Source: a virus. Taken from it: a stretch of DNA of 34,606 nucleotides. Each line of letters begins with the position of its first letter. Position 1 is the stretch's first letter. A program made the position numbers and the translations under genes. Below the pieces are notes generated by a model. It worked only from the letters and a program-made list of their open reading frames with translations. It made no database searches and had not been told where the DNA came from. This document shows, piece after piece, positions 5,369 through 28,531 of the stretch. The stretch spans positions 1 to 34,606 of IMG/VR virus record IMGVR_UViG_3300037827_000058; one strand, written 5' to 3'.

Positions 5369-5641
5369 ATGTTGTTTTCAGAAGCTTTAGCACAATTGAA
5401 AGCGAGAGTACCCGTTTACCGTAAAGGCTGGGAGCCACAAGATGGTTATTTGACTTTAATGCCTGGCATGACTCACGTCTGGAAGATTGTTCTACAACCT
5501 GCGCCTAATGCTGGTAATTATATATTCTCAGTTGCTGACTTAGAAGGTGACGATTGGGATGTATATAACGAGCCTAAAGAAGTTGTTGAGGCAGCAGTAG
5601 AAGAAAAAGCCGCAGAAGCAGCTAATTACCTCTTAGTTTAG
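5369..5641 (+). CDS. DUF2829-family protein, Tad2-like, 90 aa
   Basis: The internal ATG at 5369 follows AAAGGAGAAG. Sequence is MLFSEALAQLKARVPVYRKGW...ADLEGDDWDVY. Confidence 0.65.
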   Translation: MLFSEALAQLKARVPVYRKGWEPQDGYLTLMPGMTHVWKIVLQPAPNAGNYIFSVADLEGDDWDVYNEPKEVVEAAVEEKAAEAANYLLV

Positions 5642-5719
5642 AGGTTTAAAAGGCGACTTTGACGAATAGACGTTGAAGTCGCACTTTAAGGACAATTAAC
5701 CCAACGGACGGGGAAGAGC

Positions 5720-7918
5720 ATGGAAATCATTGCCGATCAATTAGGCGTTGATGATGTTAACTCTATGAATGATGAGTTACTCCAACGACTTGAAGAAGCA
5801 GATATAGATGAAGCCGAAGTATTAAAATCAGCCCGTGATGATATGGTTCTATGGGATGGTTATTTTGGCGAGAATTCAGTACGTGGCAAGGATGACATGA
5901 ACTTCTTACTGCGTGACCAATGGTCAGCCGTTGAGCGTTCCGAATTTAGTCGTTTATTTAAACCTGCCATGACGTTTAATAAATTATACGATACAACCAA
6001 GAAAGTAGTAGGCGAACAACGGAAAAACAAGCCAGACTTAATGGTACGATCGCTAACAGGCAAAGCGACGCAAAAGCAAATAGACCTCCGCGCAGATTTA
6101 GTGCGCACGATTTCATATCAGTCACAAAACGATTTAGTTTATCAAACAGCATTTAAGCAATCCCTTATGATGGGTTATGGTGCTTTTGAAATCTGCTTAG
6201 AGTATGAAAATCCCAAAAGCTTTAATCAAATCATCCGTTATGAATTAATTCCAGATGTTACCCGTACATCCTTTGACCCAACAGCCATGAAACCACACAA
6301 AGGAGATGGTAACTTCTGTGCAAGACAGTATGTTTATACCAAGGAAGAATTTTATGCAACATATCCTAACGTCCTTAACCCTGTATCTTACGCTGACCCT
6401 CGTTCCTTGCTCGACTTCCAATGGGAAACCCGTGACACTATCGTGGTATGTAAGTACACACGCAAAGAATGGTACCCAGTAAAGCTTTATCTTCTTTCTG
6501 ATGGTCAGGCAGTAACCGAAGATGAATGGGAAGAGATGCAAGATGACATCAAGATGCAAACTGATTTAGCGGATTCTTCGGAGGTTGTAGGAGATATCAT
6601 TCGCAAATCCATACCAACTATTGTTGGTGAGAGGATGAGCAAAGACTACAAGATTCGCCAATATGTGCTGACTCAAAACCAAATCATTGAATTTACTGAT
6701 TGGCCATCAAAATATCTGCCGATTATATTTGTTGATGGAGATTCAAACTTCATTAACGGACAACAATATACCCGTTCATTTATCCATGAAGCTAAAGATG
6801 CTCAGAAATTCGTGAACTATGTGGGTTCTGAAATTGCCGCTGAAATTAAGAACAGGAGACGTGAGCAATGGATGGGCACACCGGATAACATTCTTGGTAA
6901 TGAACAAATGTGGCGAAATCCTGAGCTACAATCAGGAATATTAATCGCTAAGCCAGACCCAAAAACAGGTGCAATGCCAACCAAAATGCCGCCATGGGAA
7001 CTATCCCCTACTCTTCTACAACAATTCCAACGTGGTTCACAAGATATGCGTGAAATACTTGGATTTTCCGAAAATGAAGCACTTCAAGGTCATGACATGT
7101 CCGGTAAAGCCAGGCGTGAACGTAAACTTGAAGGTTCAATGTCAGCTTTTGTGTGGTTTGACAATCTTAACCAATCAATAGAACAAGGAGGGCGGGTTGT
7201 CCTTGACTTATTGCCTGTGATTGCAGGAGAAAATGAACGCCATATGGTTATATCAAAGGCAGATGGTCGTACTGATTCCATTACTTTAAACAAACGAACT
7301 GGTGAAGATGAAAATGGAGAACCTATTCTGGACAATGTTTTGGATCAAGGAAATTATGACATTGAAATTGACACAGGCCCTAGTTTCGCTGTTCAAAAAG
7401 ATATGGCGTTGGAGTTCTTCCAGCAAACGTTGCAAGCTAATCCGCAAGTGTTCCCCCTTATTGCAGACCTTTGGGCTAAGAATCTGGATGTACAGTATAT
7501 GCCTCAGATTGCCGAACGATTCAAAACCCTTGTTCCCCCTCAAATATTGGCTAAAGAAGAAGGAAAACAATTGCCGCCACAACCTCCAAGTCCTCAAGAG
7601 CAAATGGCGCAACAGCAAATGATGCAACAGCAACAAATGATGAAGATGAATGAACAAAAGATGGCCATCGAAGAACAACAACTCATGGAACGTGCAGAAG
7701 AGTTGAAGATTCGTAAAGAAAAACATCTCCTTGAACAGGCTGAAATGATTCTAAAGGCACAGGAAATGAAGCGGAAAGCAGGATTAGAAGAGCAGCATTT
7801 GAAAGTTGAACATGGAAAGCTTCTACTTGATGCTGATAAGTCAGAAAAAGACTTTTCGTCTAAAATTGCATCAGTGCTGTCTGAGATACATAGGCATAAC
7901 AATCCGCATCATAAATAA
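5720..7918 (+). CDS. Portal protein, P22-like, with a C-terminal Gln/Met-rich coiled-coil barrel
   Basis: 732 aa, positioned after TerL and before scaffold and coat. The last ~120 residues are helical. Confidence 0.8.
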   Translation: MEIIADQLGVDDVNSMNDELLQRLEEADIDEAEVLKSARDDMVLWDGYFGENSVRGKDDMNFLLRDQWSAVERSEFSRLFKPAMTFNKLYDTTKKVVGEQRKNKPDLMVRSLTGKATQKQIDLRADLVRTISYQSQNDLVYQTAFKQSLMMGYGAFEICLEYENPKSFNQIIRYELIPDVTRTSFDPTAMKPHKGDGNFCARQYVYTKEEFYATYPNVLNPVSYADPRSLLDFQWETRDTIVVCKYTRKEWYPVKLYLLSDGQAVTEDEWEEMQDDIKMQTDLADSSEVVGDIIRKSIPTIVGERMSKDYKIRQYVLTQNQIIEFTDWPSKYLPIIFVDGDSNFINGQQYTRSFIHEAKDAQKFVNYVGSEIAAEIKNRRREQWMGTPDNILGNEQMWRNPELQSGILIAKPDPKTGAMPTKMPPWELSPTLLQQFQRGSQDMREILGFSENEALQGHDMSGKARRERKLEGSMSAFVWFDNLNQSIEQGGRVVLDLLPVIAGENERHMVISKADGRTDSITLNKRTGEDENGEPILDNVLDQGNYDIEIDTGPSFAVQKDMALEFFQQTLQANPQVFPLIADLWAKNLDVQYMPQIAERFKTLVPPQILAKEEGKQLPPQPPSPQEQMAQQQMMQQQQMMKMNEQKMAIEEQQLMERAEELKIRKEKHLLEQAEMILKAQEMKRKAGLEEQHLKVEHGKLLLDADKSEKDFSSKIASVLSEIHRHNNPHHK

Positions 7919-8041: not shown

Positions 8042-8887
8042 ATGGAGAATAACGTCATGGACGATGACAGAAATGCTTTTGCTGGACAGGTAAGCGGTGA
8101 TGATGAAGATGGTCAAAGTGGTGCTGTAGATCCAGGTTTTGTTGATGAGGCGGAAGCTAATGCGACAGAACAGGAAAATGCCCACGAAGACCCACAAACC
8201 GTCATAAAAAAACGGTTAGGGATGCAAGCAAAGAAGCATCAGCGTGAGATGCGGCAAATGCAAGAGCAGATGATGCAAATGCAAGCGCAGTTTCAAAACG
8301 CTAATATGGATTCTGCTAATCCTGCAAATCATCAAAGTCACAATAGCAATCCTTATCCTTCACCAGGTCAGCCCAATCCGCCTGGAATGTCGGAAGAGGA
8401 ACGTATACAAAAGGCAGTACGCTACGCGCTCGGAGCGAAGGAACACGAAGAACGCCAAGCTAAAGAAGCCCAACATGCGACACACGTACATAAGCAGTAT
8501 CAACGCTTAAATGACGAGTTCGATAAAGCTTCTGATAAGTACGATGATTTTGACGATGTGGTACGAGGGGAAGACATTCCTTTCACACCTCATGTGCGGG
8601 ATGCACTGTTGCTCGTTGAAAATCCAGCCGAAGTTGCGTACCGATTAGGCAAGAACAAATCTGAACTTGAAAGAATTTCAAGACTCCATCCGCTAGACCA
8701 AGCACGTGAAGTGAATAAGTTGTCGTTTTCTTTGATGGGCAACAAAGACGGTAAAACGTCTAGTTCTTCTAAGGCCAGTCCTTTAGGAGCCATCAGACAA
8801 AATCCAGCGCATTCATCCACTGCTGTTACGGATAAGACTCCTCCTTCTGAAATACGAAGGAGGATGAAGGCTGGCACATGGAAGTAA
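8042..8887 (+). CDS. Scaffolding protein candidate
   Basis: Lies between portal and coat. Composition is acidic and Gln/Met-rich helical. The start is uncertain: ATG at 8042 or 8057, while the track ORF starts at a TTG at 7967. Confidence 0.55.
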   Translation: MENNVMDDDRNAFAGQVSGDDEDGQSGAVDPGFVDEAEANATEQENAHEDPQTVIKKRLGMQAKKHQREMRQMQEQMMQMQAQFQNANMDSANPANHQSHNSNPYPSPGQPNPPGMSEEERIQKAVRYALGAKEHEERQAKEAQHATHVHKQYQRLNDEFDKASDKYDDFDDVVRGEDIPFTPHVRDALLLVENPAEVAYRLGKNKSELERISRLHPLDQAREVNKLSFSLMGNKDGKTSSSSKASPLGAIRQNPAHSSTAVTDKTPPSEIRRRMKAGTWK

Positions 8888-10728: not shown

Positions 10729-11304
10729 ATGAGAAATGAATTTTGTAAATGTGGTAATTTAAAAGAACGGCAGAGTGCTGGACAGTGTAATACATGCCAT
10801 TCTACTTATACTAAACAATGGAAAAAAGACCATCCATTAACCGATGAACAAAAAGAAAAAGCCAAGATAACAAGAAAGAAATATGAAGATAAAAAGCGCG
10901 AAGGAACCAGGCAGAGAAATCCTAGATTGGGTGCAAGACCTGGAATTTTAAGGCCTTTGTGTTCTTGGTGTGATACGGTTATAGAGAATTTTAAGAAGAA
11001 GAATTTTTGTAAGCCGTGTGCTGCTAAATATAACAGGGAATGGAAAAATAAAAATCCATTAACTGGCGAGAAATTGTTAAGAGAAAAGGTAAGATTAAAA
11101 ACTTACTATGAAATTAAAATGGGAAGATTGATAAGAAAACCTTGTGAAGTTTGTGGTCAGTTAAAGGTTGAAGCCCATCACGATGATTATTCTAAACCAT
11201 TTGATGTGAGATGGTTATGTGGACAACATCATAGAGATCATCACATGATGAAAAGGAGATCCGATGGCTCAAGTGACGAAGACCGTAAATCAACTGATAG
11301 TTAA
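10729..11304 (+). CDS. HNH endonuclease with tandem N-terminal zinc-ribbon repeats
   Basis: Two repeats of C..C...C..C...Y..(Q/E)WK(K/N).(H/N)PLT, then CEVCG...EAHHDDYSKPFDVRWLCGQHHRDHH. Confidence 0.75.
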   Translation: MRNEFCKCGNLKERQSAGQCNTCHSTYTKQWKKDHPLTDEQKEKAKITRKKYEDKKREGTRQRNPRLGARPGILRPLCSWCDTVIENFKKKNFCKPCAAKYNREWKNKNPLTGEKLLREKVRLKTYYEIKMGRLIRKPCEVCGQLKVEAHHDDYSKPFDVRWLCGQHHRDHHMMKRRSDGSSDEDRKSTDS

Positions 11305-11998
11305 TTCTTTATACCTTCTCGGGGAACTTGGCGTGGGCGAAGCACCTGATTCCTTTATGCTTTCCTCAGGTCTTGATTTATTAAACGAGTTGCTCACAAA
11401 GTTTGCAGCAGATTCTATTTATATTCCCTATTTAACCGAATTAAGCTTTAATCTAATAGCTGATAAACCAACTTATTCTATATCCGATATAGTACCTGCT
11501 GATGTTACAGGCAACAGAATCGTTGACCTATCCTATGCCAATTATACCGTACCCAGTGCCGGACAAGGGATAATCTATCCTTTGCAAATCATCAATAAAG
11601 CACAATATTTTGGCGTGACACGGTTATTGCCATTAAATACACGTCCTGGATTTATCTTCCTAGACAAACAAGATACCGAAAGTTTTATCACCTTATACCC
11701 TGCTCCTGACCAGCCTTATCCATGCTTATTGGGTGTTAAGAGTATGATTGACAGTCTCGGTGCTAATGACAGTCTTGAAGAATTGCCTCCTTTTTATTAT
11801 GGGTTTTTGAAATATTGTATGGCAAGAAAATTCTTGTCCTATTATCCCTCTGGAAATTGGCCACAAACTGCCGAAGATGAATATCAAGATTATTTTAATA
11901 CCATTAAAAATGCCAACGAAACTGACGTAACTGTAAGACCGTCAGCCATATTAAGCAGACCAGAGCCGTTCTACTGGCAAAATATTTTGGCGTACTGA
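11264..11998 (+). CDS. Head-to-tail adaptor or tail tubular protein A-like
   Basis: Positioned after the coat gene. The N-terminus IVNSLYLLGELGVGEAPDSFMLSSGLDLLNELL resembles podovirus adaptor families, recalled from memory. Confidence 0.45.
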   Translation: MAQVTKTVNQLIVNSLYLLGELGVGEAPDSFMLSSGLDLLNELLTKFAADSIYIPYLTELSFNLIADKPTYSISDIVPADVTGNRIVDLSYANYTVPSAGQGIIYPLQIINKAQYFGVTRLLPLNTRPGFIFLDKQDTESFITLYPAPDQPYPCLLGVKSMIDSLGANDSLEELPPFYYGFLKYCMARKFLSYYPSGNWPQTAEDEYQDYFNTIKNANETDVTVRPSAILSRPEPFYWQNILAY

Positions 11999-25343: not shown

Positions 25344-25541
25344 TCATCCTAAATTATACCTATTGAATCTAATGTACACTAAAAATGTACTAACTACGGC
25401 CTTAGGTCTGATTATCAAACTAACCAGATATTTATATATGATGTATGTTATAATCAGACTTTTGACAGATGTAGCGTAACCCATAACAAGAAGCAAACGT
25501 TGGTTCATTTGTATTAGCTTGTCGATATTGTCAGGCGTCAT
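25344..25541 (-). CDS. Possible small hydrophobic protein, 65 aa
   Basis: ATGA start/stop overlap with the DUF2829 gene. The ORF is very AT-rich and may be non-coding. Confidence 0.3.
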   Translation of the reverse strand: MTPDNIDKLIQMNQRLLLVMGYATSVKSLIITYIIYKYLVSLIIRPKAVVSTFLVYIRFNRYNLG

Positions 25542-25912
25542 AATTCAATCCAATCTTCGGCCACAAATGATTCAAAGTCAGGAATAAAAGGAAATATTTC
25601 CATTGATTGCACCGCAAGAAGCCTTGTCGCTCTATCCAAAAATATAAACATTTCATTCCAATCTTTTAATTTAGCTTTGGATCCATTAACCAATAATGGA
25701 ATGATTTCACAGAATTTGTACTCAGTAGGTAAATCATCAACTAGCCATCCATCCGATACCATGATGTCTTCATTGTATGAATAATTAATCAATCTTGGTT
25801 GGAATGACTTAACATCTTCGCCTACCATTTTAAAATACACCCCTTCGCGCCACGGATGACGAGTTACCTTTGCCCCTGCTTTCAGGGAATCCATTGCATC
25901 ACAAAATTTCAT
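25538..25912 (-). CDS. Internally duplicated DUF2829 (Tad2-like) protein, 124 aa
   Basis: The two halves are KFCDAMDSLKAGAKVTRHPW...SDGWLV and KFCEIIPLLVNGSKAKLKDW...VAEDWIEL. The start overlaps the upstream phosphoesterase stop as ATGA. Confidence 0.6.
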   Translation of the reverse strand: MKFCDAMDSLKAGAKVTRHPWREGVYFKMVGEDVKSFQPRLINYSYNEDIMVSDGWLVDDLPTEYKFCEIIPLLVNGSKAKLKDWNEMFIFLDRATRLLAVQSMEIFPFIPDFESFVAEDWIEL

Positions 25913-26457
25913 TGGTCTATCTCCTTTATTCTATCCATGATTACGCTGCTGTTTACTGGCCTTAGATTATGTTGCTCTACACTTACATTAAAATAATTAG
26001 GGTCATCACCACCTGGCCAAACAACTTCTCCTTGATGAATTAATGTATTTCTCCAAACTCTTCTGCTATGCAAATGCCCATGAACATTAAGAAAAAATCT
26101 CTGTCCTAGATTATCAGGATGAACAGGAATATGCGTTAATATACATCTCTTCCAATGGTACGCACCAAACAACCTTTGAAAATGAGAAACATATAAATCG
26201 AAGCTATGACAATCGTGATTCCCCATAATGAGACGCTTGTGACCATGAAGCCTGTTAGCGATAGCAACATTGCTAGCCCCAAAAGCAAAGTCACCGAGAT
26301 GGAATACAATATCTTTCGGATTAACCGTCTCGTTCCAATTGGTAATAAGCTGTTCATTCATTTCCTCCACGGTTTCAAATGGTCGAGCTTCCTTCTCATA
26401 TTCAAGGATATTACGATGCCCGAAATGGGTATCTGAGGTAAAATAAGTCTCAGTCAT
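25909..26457 (-). CDS. Calcineurin-like metallophosphoesterase
   Basis: Motifs FTSDTHFGH, HLGDF, GNHD and HGHLH. The internal ATG at 26457 is preferred because the longer track ORF would overlap the HNH-AP2 gene. Confidence 0.85.
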   Translation of the reverse strand: MTETYFTSDTHFGHRNILEYEKEARPFETVEEMNEQLITNWNETVNPKDIVFHLGDFAFGASNVAIANRLHGHKRLIMGNHDCHSFDLYVSHFQRLFGAYHWKRCILTHIPVHPDNLGQRFFLNVHGHLHSRRVWRNTLIHQGEVVWPGGDDPNYFNVSVEQHNLRPVNSSVIMDRIKEIDQ

Positions 26458-26908
26458 AATACTTCCTTTGCGCATTAAGCACAGCTTGATAGGCTGCTTC
26501 TTGTGTTTTATAAACACCTAAAGAAATTCGTTTATATGCAACAGATATTCTTGCTCTCCAATTTCCATCGTGATGCTTTGTTACTCCTCTGTATCTACTT
26601 TCGCCTCCACGACTTTTTTGATACTGAATATTTTGTGCATGGGTGCATACTCTTAAATTGCTTTTTCTATTATCTAATGTATTACCATTGATATGGTCTA
26701 CTTCCATCCCATCAGGACAATTCATAATTTGCCTGTGCATTTTGACCTTGAGTCTCGTGCCTGATTCATCGGTCCCATTATTTCTAATCGCATAGAATCC
26801 ATTTTTTAATCTAGTTGGTTGTGCTTGCCATTTAAAGGCGATTATTTGTTTATAATCTTCTTCATCTATTCTCGCATATTGACCTTTTGTTAATTCAACC
26901 AACATCAT
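26450..26908 (-). CDS. HNH endonuclease with a C-terminal AP2 DNA-binding domain
   Basis: HNH motif VDHINGNTLDNRKSNLRVCTHAQN. AP2 motif YRGVTKHHDGNWRARISVAYKRISLGVYKTQEAAYQAV. Confidence 0.85.
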   Translation of the reverse strand: MMLVELTKGQYARIDEEDYKQIIAFKWQAQPTRLKNGFYAIRNNGTDESGTRLKVKMHRQIMNCPDGMEVDHINGNTLDNRKSNLRVCTHAQNIQYQKSRGGESRYRGVTKHHDGNWRARISVAYKRISLGVYKTQEAAYQAVLNAQRKYYD

Positions 26909-27062: not shown

Positions 27063-27331
27063 TTATCCTTTTGCTTATGGTCTACCCACCTAAGGGCTAA
27101 TTTAACTTTATCCATATACTGTTTTAAAATAAACTCTCTGCGTATTTGAAATGTTCCAGCTACTTTATCTATTATCTCCGCTGCAATGGCTGATGGCGCA
27201 GTTAAACATTGTTGAATAAAATATTTTCTATCATTCTCATAATCTCTTGGATCAATACATTCTATAAACTTCTGCACAAACTCATTAGTTAAGTCAGTTA
27301 GCTTCTTCAAATCCTCAAGTTTCTTATCCAC
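27059..27331 (-). CDS. Hypothetical helical protein, 90 aa, GTG start
   Basis: Track ORF with GGAGAAGG upstream of the GTG at 27331. Confidence 0.55.
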   Translation of the reverse strand: MDKKLEDLKKLTDLTNEFVQKFIECIDPRDYENDRKYFIQQCLTAPSAIAAEIIDKVAGTFQIRREFILKQYMDKVKLALRWVDHKQKDK

Positions 27332-27344
27332 CTAATACCTTCTC

Positions 27345-27530
27345 CATAAAAGGGTGGGATAGAGGGATTTTCACCCTCACCTACCTCGTTAGCTTACTTG
27401 TACCAGCCCTTTTCTATTTCTAGCGGGTCACTCGCGACTCAGGTTTCCCATTGCCCTTTCCTATTCAGCCTCGGCTATGCCAAAATGAGGCGCTCTTCGA
27501 TCACGCGCGTCTTTTCGAGCTCTATCCCAT
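27345..27530 (-). ncRNA. Candidate structured RNA or cis-regulatory leader, family unrecognised
   Basis: No ORF on either strand, and visibly GC-richer than its surroundings. A 9-bp long-range helix pairs 27520-27528 with 27356-27364. Local hairpins are present. At the 3' end on the minus strand, stem AGGGUG/CACCCU is followed by UUUUAU. Confidence 0.35.
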
Positions 27531-27536
27531 AAACAA

Positions 27537-28031
27537 TTAAAACGCTATATCATCATCAGCGAAGGGATCGTCTTCTGCCTTTTTAGCTAGTGGCTTTTGA
27601 TCTTCCTTCTTGATATAGTCCTCAACTTTGTTCTTATCTGGGTACTTACTCCCAGCAGGTTTCCCTTTTAACTTATCTTGTGGAATTTCGCCACCTTCTT
27701 CAATAGTAATTTTTACTCGAACCCGATTGCCAATGGCGACTTCTGAACATAATTTACCAGACTCATATTGTGGTAACAGTCCTGCTGAATCAGCAAAATG
27801 AATAACCTTCCACATCATGCTCTTCGTAAACACAAGGAAGTCTCGAACATCACGGGCCTTTCCATCTTCATCAAAAACCTGCAAGGTGATGTCCATCATA
27901 GGGTTACCGCTATTGGCAGAAACCTTATCTTGTGAGGCAGATATTACCGCCTCATACTCACCTTCTTTAAGAAGGTTAAATCGCTCTTCGATAGCTTCCT
28001 GCTCTGACATTACTGAATATTGAAATGACAT
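27537..28031 (-). CDS. SSB-like protein (DUF669-type) with an acidic C-terminal tail
   Basis: The C-terminus DDPFADDDIAF resembles the SSB tip. The gene is a neighbour of the Sak4-type ATPase. The start at the ATG at 28031 has GGAGA 9 nt upstream and TAATG coupling. Confidence 0.6.
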   Translation of the reverse strand: MSFQYSVMSEQEAIEERFNLLKEGEYEAVISASQDKVSANSGNPMMDITLQVFDEDGKARDVRDFLVFTKSMMWKVIHFADSAGLLPQYESGKLCSEVAIGNRVRVKITIEEGGEIPQDKLKGKPAGSKYPDKNKVEDYIKKEDQKPLAKKAEDDPFADDDIAF

Positions 28032-28531
28032 TATATATTTCTCCATGTTATGTTACGAACGATTCTATCTATTGCACTTATTGAGGTGCCATATATTTTT
28101 GATAACTCTGTGCAATTCATTGTTTTTGAATAAGACATTCTTATTTTTATGATATCTTCTTCTTTTAGCTTAGCCGTCCCATTCCGTTCACCAAATGACC
28201 CAACATATCCATTTCTATTCTTTTGAAACATGTCTTGCGTGTTATCTTTTTTTGTTCCTAGCCATAGATGCTCTGGATTAACACATTTCCTGTTGTCACA
28301 GGAATGCAGAACGCACATCCCCGCAGGGATCAATCCAATAAAAAATTCATAAGAATATCTATGGGCATGAATCCATTTTTTATTTAGAGTTTTAAACTGT
28401 CCATATCCATTAGACTTTATTGTTCCTCTCCACTCCAAGCATCCGTTATTGCTAATTAAGATGTTTGAATAAAATCTATTTTTATTTGTATTCAATATTC
28501 CAGAATCTCGAATATATCTATGGCTAGTCAT
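28031..28531 (-). CDS. HNH_3-type homing endonuclease with a C-terminal HTH
   Basis: Motifs NGYGQF and LHSCDNRKCVNPEHLWLGTKKDN, with C-terminal LSKIYGTSISAIDRIVRNITW. Confidence 0.8.
   Translation of the reverse strand: MTSHRYIRDSGILNTNKNRFYSNILISNNGCLEWRGTIKSNGYGQFKTLNKKWIHAHRYSYEFFIGLIPAGMCVLHSCDNRKCVNPEHLWLGTKKDNTQDMFQKNRNGYVGSFGERNGTAKLKEEDIIKIRMSYSKTMNCTELSKIYGTSISAIDRIVRNITWRNI

Follow-up and report, generated by a model that had tools for sequence, protein, structure and literature searches.

We analyzed a 34,606 nt stretch of viral DNA (IMG/VR virus record IMGVR_UViG_3300037827_000058, positions 1 to 34,606; the window from here on) and propose that its minus strand encodes, from position 27528 to about 27352 (~177 nt), a non-coding RNA derived from transfer RNA (tRNA). 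We refer to this RNA as 'family A' and suggest that it is processed and acts in trans as a mimic of tRNA. Judging from an alignment of homologous copies, we favor this reading, gene assignment and function taken together, with moderate confidence. Family A is a conserved, strand-specific and tRNA-shaped RNA that occurs in an array setting in the accessory region of an early operon. The original prediction, made from the letters of the window, had described a GC-rich, highly structured gap devoid of open reading frames (ORFs) and had offered a novel non-coding RNA or a riboswitch-like leader as explanations. The gap indeed extends from the stop codon of a DUF669/SSB-like gene at 27537 to a GTG start at 27331, and its GC content is 0.475-0.48 compared to 0.30-0.41 in the flanks. 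The claim that it is non-coding was confirmed as well: the minus strand begins ATG GGA TAG, and the sole ORF in the gap is a frame of 44 aa on the plus strand. A small protein was rejected as an explanation for this reason and because the copies differ in length by non-multiples of three. The notion of a novel structured RNA outside the known families also held. An Rfam search of the whole window gave no match for the element at gathering score, and a search of the region to E = 10 returned only chance matches to small nucleolar and long non-coding RNAs. Likewise, family A matches nothing in Rfam 15.

Copies of the RNA and covariation of its helices

Neither the element with its flanks (blastn) nor the SSB-like protein (tblastn) matched any of 50,697 phage records, and no cultured relative was found. 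The large terminase (TerL) is only 39% identical to that of phages of ~34 kb such as Pelagibacter phage Hodr and Methylophilales phage MEP301. A search of IMG/VR with the SSB-like protein retrieved 55 syntenic loci with 55-88% identity. Comparison by blastn revealed that some of these loci share both ends of the element but differ in its middle. A covariance model was built from 11 copies and run over the retrieved loci; the scans of entire collections (IMG/VR, metagenomes, genomes) used exact patterns, and those of IMG/VR and of the metagenome collection added further copies. In total, 26 distinct copies of family A were obtained from contigs of uncultured phages and metagenomes, and they come from at least two phage lineages. 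Two contigs have a different gene content: L163 (RNA at 5580-5822, minus strand) carries terminase-sized and portal-sized ORFs ~1 kb downstream of the RNA, and L143 (RNA at 11230-11365, minus strand) carries four canonical tRNA genes at 8463-8803. These contigs indicate that the RNA moves between phage lineages. Matches to the 5' pattern in L149, L155, L160, L162, L165 and L166-L168 were discarded as chance matches in GC-rich coding DNA. The hairpin pattern AGGYAGGTGNNGGTGAAANNCC matched 62 genome stretches from very diverse bacteria, all by chance and with no credible match to the family A model; 15 of these 62 loci were scanned against Rfam and yielded only two tRNAs.

In the 26-copy alignment, the five core helices comprise 23 pairs that form in 99.3% of cases, and compensatory double changes (62 cells) occur at 17 of these pairs. 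None of 500 column shuffles reached any of the pairing or compensation measures, and sliding the 3' partners by one to three columns lowered pairing to 36-49%. RNAalifold recovered the helices P1, P2, P3, P3a and P4 from an independent MAFFT alignment of 12 short copies. A mutual-information scan added two further helices, namely P2a (columns 31-75 and 32-73, 100% Watson-Crick with three and four pair types) and the closing helix of P3b (columns 209-376 and 211-374); a search of this kind for a tertiary partner of T-loop positions 6-7 found none. G-U pairs are frequent on this strand only, with the P3 pair at columns 84-388 being G-U in 21 copies, which indicates that the RNA is read from the gene (minus) strand. 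Of the unpaired core positions, 24 carry the same nucleotide in 24 or more of the 26 copies, and this near-invariance points to a constrained tertiary core.

By folding energy, the description as highly structured failed. The minimum free energy (MFE) of the gap sequence is -54.8 kcal/mol compared to -53.7 +/- 3.9 kcal/mol for shuffled sequences (z = -0.29), and 77 of 200 shuffles folded as well. In the window copy, the fold constrained to the consensus has -44.5 kcal/mol compared to an MFE of -50.2 kcal/mol and thus lies 5.7 kcal/mol above it. Folding of a single sequence is uninformative or misleading here: the evidence for structure is covariation and not energy, and the shuffled-energy test, by which the finding would fail, is the wrong test for this RNA.

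A tRNA frame without an anticodon loop

Family A is predicted to fold into a four-way junction whose stem lengths and connectors are those of tRNA. The alignment of the 26 copies fits the tRNA cloverleaf, which has stems of 7, 4, 5 and 5 bp and connectors of 2, 1 and 4-5 nt, although the first stem ranges from 4 to 8 bp. Shared with tRNA (RF00005) are a closing stem of 6-7 bp, a 2-nt linker, a 4-bp GCUC/GAGC stem, a 5-bp stem, an AGGU connector and, directly next to the closing stem, a 5-bp stem bearing a loop of 7 nt. A discriminator A, in 18 of the 26 copies an encoded CC(A) end, and a U at position -1 are shared as well, and so are the occurrence in arrays and the location in the same variable region in which relatives carry matches to the tRNA model. 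Unlike tRNA, family A has neither a 7-nt anticodon loop nor U33, and in their place there is a three-way junction with a module of ~25-190 nt. The parts of the RNA and the features of its surroundings are listed below.

Coordinates of the family A RNA in the window, of neighboring genes and of related RNAs at syntenic loci
Feature	Sequence	Position	Strand	Remarks
5' leader UUAU	Window	27529..27532	minus	U(-1) in 26/26 copies, A(-2) in 22/26
P1 5' strand GGGAUA, acceptor-like stem	Window	27523..27528	minus	Pairs with 27356-27361
Linker GA (tRNA positions 8-9)	Window	27521..27522	minus	G in 25/26, A in 26/26
P2 arm, D-arm position	Window	27492..27520	minus	GCUC 27520-27517 pairs with GAGC 27495-27492; 99% paired
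P2a, short hairpin ACGCGCGU	Window	27510-27503	minus	Within P2
P3 5' strand GCCUC, anticodon-stem position	Window	27487..27491	minus	Pairs with GAGGU 27383-27387
Three-way junction	Window	27470..27486	minus	AUUUU 27486-27482; P3a GGC-AUA-GCC 27481-27473; GAG 27472-27470
P3b, variable 'payload' arm, ~78 nt	Window	27392..27469	minus	GCU-GAA ... AGUA-AGC closes a ~70-nt domain
Junction UAAC and P3 3' strand GAGGU	Window	27383..27391	minus	A and C invariant
AGGU, variable-loop position	Window	27379..27382	minus	24-26/26 copies identical per position
P4 GAGGG-UGAAAAU-CCCUC, T-arm position	Window	27362..27378	minus	100% paired; 4/5 pairs compensatory
P1 3' strand UAUCCC	Window	27356..27361	minus	Abuts P4 directly, as in tRNA
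3' tail: A (discriminator position), CCC, UUUU	Window	27348..27355	minus	A in 24/26 copies
Shine-Dalgarno (SD)-like GGAGAAGG and GTG start of the next gene (90 aa, no family match)	Window	27329..27345	minus	Outside the RNA
DUF669/SSB-like gene	Window	27537-28046	minus	
HNH_3 endonuclease gene	Window	28031-28531	minus	Upstream side of SSB-like gene and RNA
HNH_3 + AP2 endonuclease gene	Window	26450-26908	minus	Other side of SSB-like gene and RNA
Tad2-like protein, 124 aa	Window	25538-25912	minus	PF11195 (Thoeris anti-defence 2-like), E = 2.4e-11
Family B	L007	3756-3950		
Family B	L008	2167-2316		
Family B	L017	3526-3662		
Family B	L037	3638-3776		
Family B	L130	297-453		
Family B	L157	383-502		
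Family B	L161	4157-4278		
Family B	L062	5282-5408	minus	Reverse-complemented locus coordinates
Family B	L134	251-413	minus	Reverse-complemented locus coordinates
Family C	L021	3508-3606		
Family C	L036	5600-5702		
Rfam tRNA-model match	L043	3603-3671		
Rfam tRNA-model match	L054	5006-5075		
Rfam tRNA-model match	L051	3677-3750		
Rfam tRNA-model match	L045	4773-4856		

P1 is 100% paired in the 26 copies, with compensatory changes in five of its six pairs; it has 6 bp in the window and 7 bp in L003, L130, L134 and L143. P2 encloses a conserved purine loop (GAAAAG / GAUCGAA, the purines being invariant) together with P2a. A K-turn in P2 was considered and did not fit the consensus by eye. P3 is 99.2% paired and four of its five pairs are compensatory, for instance with CAUC/GAUG, CCUU/AAGG or CCUA/UAGG in different copies. 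In the adjoining three-way junction A, U and U are invariant, and all three pairs of P3a show compensatory changes. The 7-nt loop of P4 reads UGAAANY, with UGAAA nearly invariant and the last two positions variable. The 3' tail encodes NCC in 18 of the 26 copies and has an A followed by a U-rich sequence in the other eight; the window copy has ACCC and not ACCA. L038, L044, L154, L158, L159, L161 and L163 are among the copies that lack an encoded CCA. A U-rich stretch follows the RNA in most copies. The eight copies that have no CC tail keep AGGU too, so pairing with the tail is not the reason for its conservation.

The closing helix of the P3b arm covaries, and its GCU-GAA ... AGUA-AGC closure looks, by eye, like a loop-E or sarcin-ricin motif. 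The domain found in the window is also present in L004, L050, L145 and L134, and other sublineages carry different modules of ~25 to ~190 nt. We considered that the payload is a module used elsewhere and rejected this, because its signature sequence was confined to family A copies in IMG/VR and absent from all 185,579 representative genomes. The payload contains a frame of nine codons (27428-27454, minus strand: GCA AUG GGA AAC CUG AGU CGC GAG UGA) which has the same length in L004, L050, L134 and L145; its substitutions are hairpin-like (GGGAAACC to GGAUUAAUCC), and the frame is probably not coding. The loop of P2a (27503-27510) is often self-complementary, reading CGCG, GCGC or AUAU in different copies. 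A palindrome in the payload, UCGCGA (27433-27438, minus strand), is UUGCAA in L050, where palindromy is kept, and is lost in L134. Loop-loop dimerization through these sequences would be possible.

The helices that had been read from the window are in part those of the family. The complementarity of GGGAUAGAG (27528-27520) with CUCUAUCCC (27364-27356) was correct and the long-range closure stands, its first 6 bp being conserved, whereas the GAG/CUC extension does not (A-U in 1 of 26 copies). Among the proposed local hairpins, GGC-AUA-GCC and ACGCGCGU coincide with covarying helices. The local GCCUC/GAGGC helix, in contrast, is 75% paired, lacks compensatory changes and does not exceed shuffles; the actual partner of GCCUC is the distant GAGGU. 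The AGGGUG/CACCCU terminator also had to be given up. Its helix is 69.9% paired and without support, its outermost pair forms in 2 of 26 copies, and the pairing amounts to an invariant GGUG that faces a frequent ACC tail; the eight copies without a CC tail retain GGUG. A conserved GC-rich hairpin with a short loop and a U-run, as typical of an intrinsic terminator, was not found, and a terminator scan of the element predicted none on the minus strand.

Tandem arrays and gene neighborhood in the relatives

We scanned the relatives for an acceptor stem combined with a T arm and found several other designs. Family B, represented by nine distinct copies and none in the window, has the layout GACAAUCG-CG-[GCGUG GACAGUGA CACGC]-variable domain-[GCAGG UGCAAUU CCUGC]-CGAUUGUC-ACC, and covariation is seen in its acceptor, D-like and T stems. 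In L037/38, L062, L130, L134 and L157 it is found 5-10 nt upstream of family A, and in L007 downstream of it. Family C possesses a true 7-nt anticodon loop CUGUAAA (GUA, Tyr-type), a U73-CCA end, a giant D loop of ~30 nt and a T loop of the non-canonical type seen in family A (UGAAAUC / UGGAAGC). The Rfam tRNA model matched in the region between the DUF669 and Tad2-like genes of L045 (52.7 bits), L054 (42.6), L043 (40.0) and L051 (38.1). L043 and L054 have canonical D and T loops, and their anticodon stem is capped by UUUU or CUUUUC, which is too short for an anticodon; ARAGORN gives 'anticodons' of 2 or 4 nt for L043, L054 and L045. In family A, A-UUUU likewise lies directly 3' of the anticodon-stem strand. 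The RNAs of families A, B and C as well as the tRNA-model matches are preceded by (U/A)AU, and U(-1) is common to all of them.

Further elements were observed in the same region. In L010 (3507-3718), L006 (3501-3646) and L038 (3489-3637), a conserved stretch of non-coding sequence separates the SSB-like gene from the tRNA-like RNAs. It begins with AAAGAAYUC and ends in a T-loop-like hairpin, which is GCGGG-UGAGAAG-CCCGC followed by AACCA in L010 and GGCGG-UGAGAGG-CCUCC in L038. One-off elements of 97-200 nt that combine a closing stem, a T-arm-like hairpin and NCC(A) are found in L012 (3515-3616), L051 (3575-3672) and L055 (5910-6110); they match none of families A-C.

In the window, the genes around the RNA all lie on the minus strand, in the order Sak4-like AAA_24, HNH endonuclease, DUF669/SSB-like, the RNA, a 90-aa unknown, a 55-aa unknown, HNH-AP2 endonuclease, phosphoesterase and Tad2-like protein. 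The best PF11195 match of the Tad2-like protein falls in residues 1-42. Its gene, kept in 44 of 56 syntenic loci, delimits on the far side the variable region in which the RNA lies. Across these 56 loci the interval from the DUF669 to the Tad2-like gene is variable: either the two genes are adjacent or up to 1.5 kb of small ORFs and RNAs lie between them. Family A is found in 15 of the 56 loci, and many relatives have no such element between the same genes. The ORF downstream of family A varies as well and belongs to at least seven unrelated types, including the 90-aa unknown, a phosphoesterase, a CxxC protein and several unknowns; in some copies another RNA follows, in others nothing. No promoter or terminator was predicted near the element on the minus strand. 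In L001, Sak4 lies directly beside DUF669 with no HNH gene between them, and the upstream HNH_3 gene of the window therefore looks like the insertion of a free-standing homing endonuclease. Small hydrophobic ORFs of ~38-45 aa were noticed between the SSB-like gene and the RNA in L001 (3517-3631), L007, L013, L003 (3505-3640) and L002, with their stop codons immediately 5' of the UUAU leader.

A proposed tRNA mimic and its rival explanations

RNase P favors U at position -1 and recognizes the stack of acceptor stem and T arm together with an RCCA tail, and where a tRNA gene does not encode CCA, RNase Z and the CCA-adding enzyme complete the 3' end. Given U(-1) in 26 of 26 copies, the arrays and the RCC tail, we infer that family A is a putative RNase P substrate. 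It would be transcribed with the early operon (Sak4, DUF669/SSB), host RNase P would cut after the invariant U(-1), and the 3' end would be trimmed and receive CCA where this is not encoded. The released RNA might then be stable and, acting in trans, imitate the body of a tRNA, with the tRNA frame providing processing and stability and the replaced arm representing the working, specific part. As there is no anticodon loop, decoding is very unlikely, and the phages that carry such RNAs probably employ tRNA mimicry to ends other than codon reading. We speculate, by analogy, that the target is most likely a host factor that recognizes the acceptor/T-arm side, for example a defence toxin acting on tRNA acceptor ends. 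There are toxins which check or modify the acceptor ends of tRNAs (10.1101/2024.07.05.602228; PMC10435456), and tRNAs of phages are a known countermeasure to defences that cleave tRNA (PMC11555353; PMC10802454). The design without an anticodon argues against a decoy for anticodon nucleases; readers of the acceptor end or the tRNA body fit better.

Several points weigh against this proposal. In place of the D loop there is a purine-rich internal loop with a hairpin (GAAAAG-hairpin-GAUCGAA), which lacks G18 G19, and the T loop is UGAAANY and not UUCRANY, so that only U54 and A58 are kept while U55 and C56 are lost. The Rfam tRNA model gave no match in the window, either at gathering score or to E = 10, and ARAGORN detected no tRNA there, either by default or with thresholds at 80% and introns allowed. 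A tRNA with an intron was rejected for this reason too: ARAGORN calls some relatives in this way only at 80% thresholds and the window never. P1 varies from 4 to 8 bp among the copies, which means that acceptor and T stem do not form the fixed stack of 12 bp expected by RNase P and other tRNA 'rulers'. No family A copy was among the exact-pattern matches in 185,579 representative genomes. An SD sequence and a start codon lie ~17-45 nt downstream in about 15 of the 26 copies, so that an effect in cis on the next gene keeps a low probability; we weigh it below as part of a leader function. Finally, a decoy or anti-defence role is speculative and draws only on context and analogy.

Mimicry of tRNA by non-coding RNAs is already known from transfer-messenger RNA (tmRNA), YrlA, yjdF, viral tRNA-like structures and engineered tRNA scaffolds. 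In the engineered 'tRNA scaffold' a foreign structured RNA replaces the anticodon stem-loop of a tRNA, and the chimera is processed and stabilized like tRNA. That is a laboratory design, whereas the arrangement in family A is natural and has remodeled D and T loops in addition, its processing being putative. With the tRNA-like domain of tmRNA, family A shares an acceptor stem and T arm closed by both RNA ends, an ACCA-type 3' end and the replacement of the anticodon arm by a long helix leading into a large inserted domain. It differs from tmRNA in its T loop, which is not GUUCRANYC, in being far shorter and in having no conserved reading frame for a tag. We rejected tmRNA as an identity because ARAGORN was negative even at relaxed thresholds and G3-U70 is missing: at the third pair of P1 (columns 11-417), 22 copies have GC, three AU and one CG, and none has G-U. 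In YrlA, the stem to which Ro binds is made up of the two RNA ends, and the D and T loops of the tRNA-like part are canonical, unlike in family A, the ends of which form an acceptor-like stem and the loops of which are non-canonical; Rfam also gave no match. YrlA, a bacterial Y RNA with a tRNA-mimicking module, resembles family A as a non-coding RNA that imitates a portion of tRNA and does not decode (PMC4201824). Ro/Rsr was absent from the ten neighboring proteins that were scanned. In the searchable literature, which does not cover a catalogue of 10,006 viral candidate RNAs, we found no description of such a phage RNA family.

We wondered whether the RNA might instead act in cis as a leader of the next gene, either as a riboswitch whose aptamer is the junction core or, as in yjdF, as a tRNA-shaped leader that enhances translation of the following ORF. 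Aptamers typically have such a junction of several stems, here with 24 near-invariant unpaired nucleotides, and a conserved aptamer with covariation is indeed what the alignment shows; the SD sequence and start codon that follow in many copies fit as well. A precedent is the yjdF riboswitch, the aptamer of which is a tRNA homologue derived from tRNA-Lys, and authentic tRNAs grafted into leaders activate translation (PMC9142559). Like family A, it is a tRNA-derived four-way junction with altered loops just 5' of an SD sequence and start codon (PMC9142559). Family A, however, matches neither the yjdF model nor any other riboswitch model of Rfam, forms tandem arrays with other tRNA-like RNAs and has neither a conserved downstream gene nor, apparently, a conserved helix that sequesters the SD sequence. 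The genes that follow it do not form a functionally related set, as the ORFs fall into different clusters or are absent, and neither a conserved terminator nor an alternative helix is seen which could serve as an expression platform. The riboswitch or attenuator of the original prediction thus did not stand up, since the terminator and its interleaving with the closing helix are peculiar to the window and not conserved and the architecture is that of a tRNA cloverleaf. A cobalamin riboswitch, raised by GGUGAAANNCC and by the genome matches to the pattern AGGYAGGTGNNGGTGAAANNCC, was dismissed too, with no match to RF00174 or RF01689 to E = 10. Altogether, we regard a leader function as unlikely. 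An equally low probability is given to a pure processing signal ('tRNA punctuation'), in which the fold would recruit RNase P and 3' enzymes to cut the early mRNA and the released RNA would be functionless. The invariant U(-1), the constancy of the acceptor/T-arm module across families A, B and C and the location at gene boundaries would suit this idea. Yet a minihelix of acceptor and T arm would suffice for such a signal, whereas the junctions, the internal loop of P2 and the three-way junction have hardly changed between phages that share only 55-88% identity in their SSB-like proteins. For mere punctuation, arrays of two or three of these RNAs would be redundant, and many relatives do without any element between the same genes.

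Small ribozymes are frequent in phage genomes, and the highly conserved unpaired core might suggest a new self-cleaving or catalytic RNA in which the four-way junction is incidental. We hold this to be very improbable, because neither a match to a known ribozyme family nor a candidate cleavage site came to light and the tRNA cloverleaf accounts for the architecture point by point. The location in a replication and recombination module and the absence of canonical tRNA loops would be in line with a decaying tRNA pseudogene or a DNA element, such as an origin or attachment site, with no RNA function. The compensatory changes in 17 of 23 pairs, the G-U pairs, which are A-C mismatches on the other strand, and the 24 invariant unpaired positions in 26 copies from at least two phage lineages bring this explanation close to refuted.

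A broader idea takes these tRNA-like RNAs together. The phages in question might carry a toolkit of anticodon-less tRNA mimics, comprising family A, family B, the UUUU-capped RNAs of L043 and L054 and others, in which the tRNA frame as a natural scaffold for processing and stability is combined with an exchangeable effector for counter-defence or host takeover. This is tentative and, in our view, rather improbable in this general form. One possible mode would be to soak up host proteins that recognize tRNA acceptor ends or bodies.

Genes for tRNA in phages are usually explained by codon supply or, lately, by the replacement of host tRNAs cut by defence nucleases. For a tRNA frame without an anticodon loop either role is very unlikely. 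Family A is now defined by 26 copies, a covariance model and exact boundaries, and its interest lies in the quality of the covariation, the clear tRNA ancestry with loss of the anticodon and the arrays of tRNA mimics beside an anti-defence-like gene. Standard tRNA finders and Rfam overlook a whole group of tRNA-derived genes in uncultured phages. If these RNAs are processed and stable, they would represent an undescribed function of tRNA mimicry in phage infection and a natural counterpart of the engineered tRNA scaffold; if the idea of a toolkit is true, they would constitute a new class of phage RNA effector.

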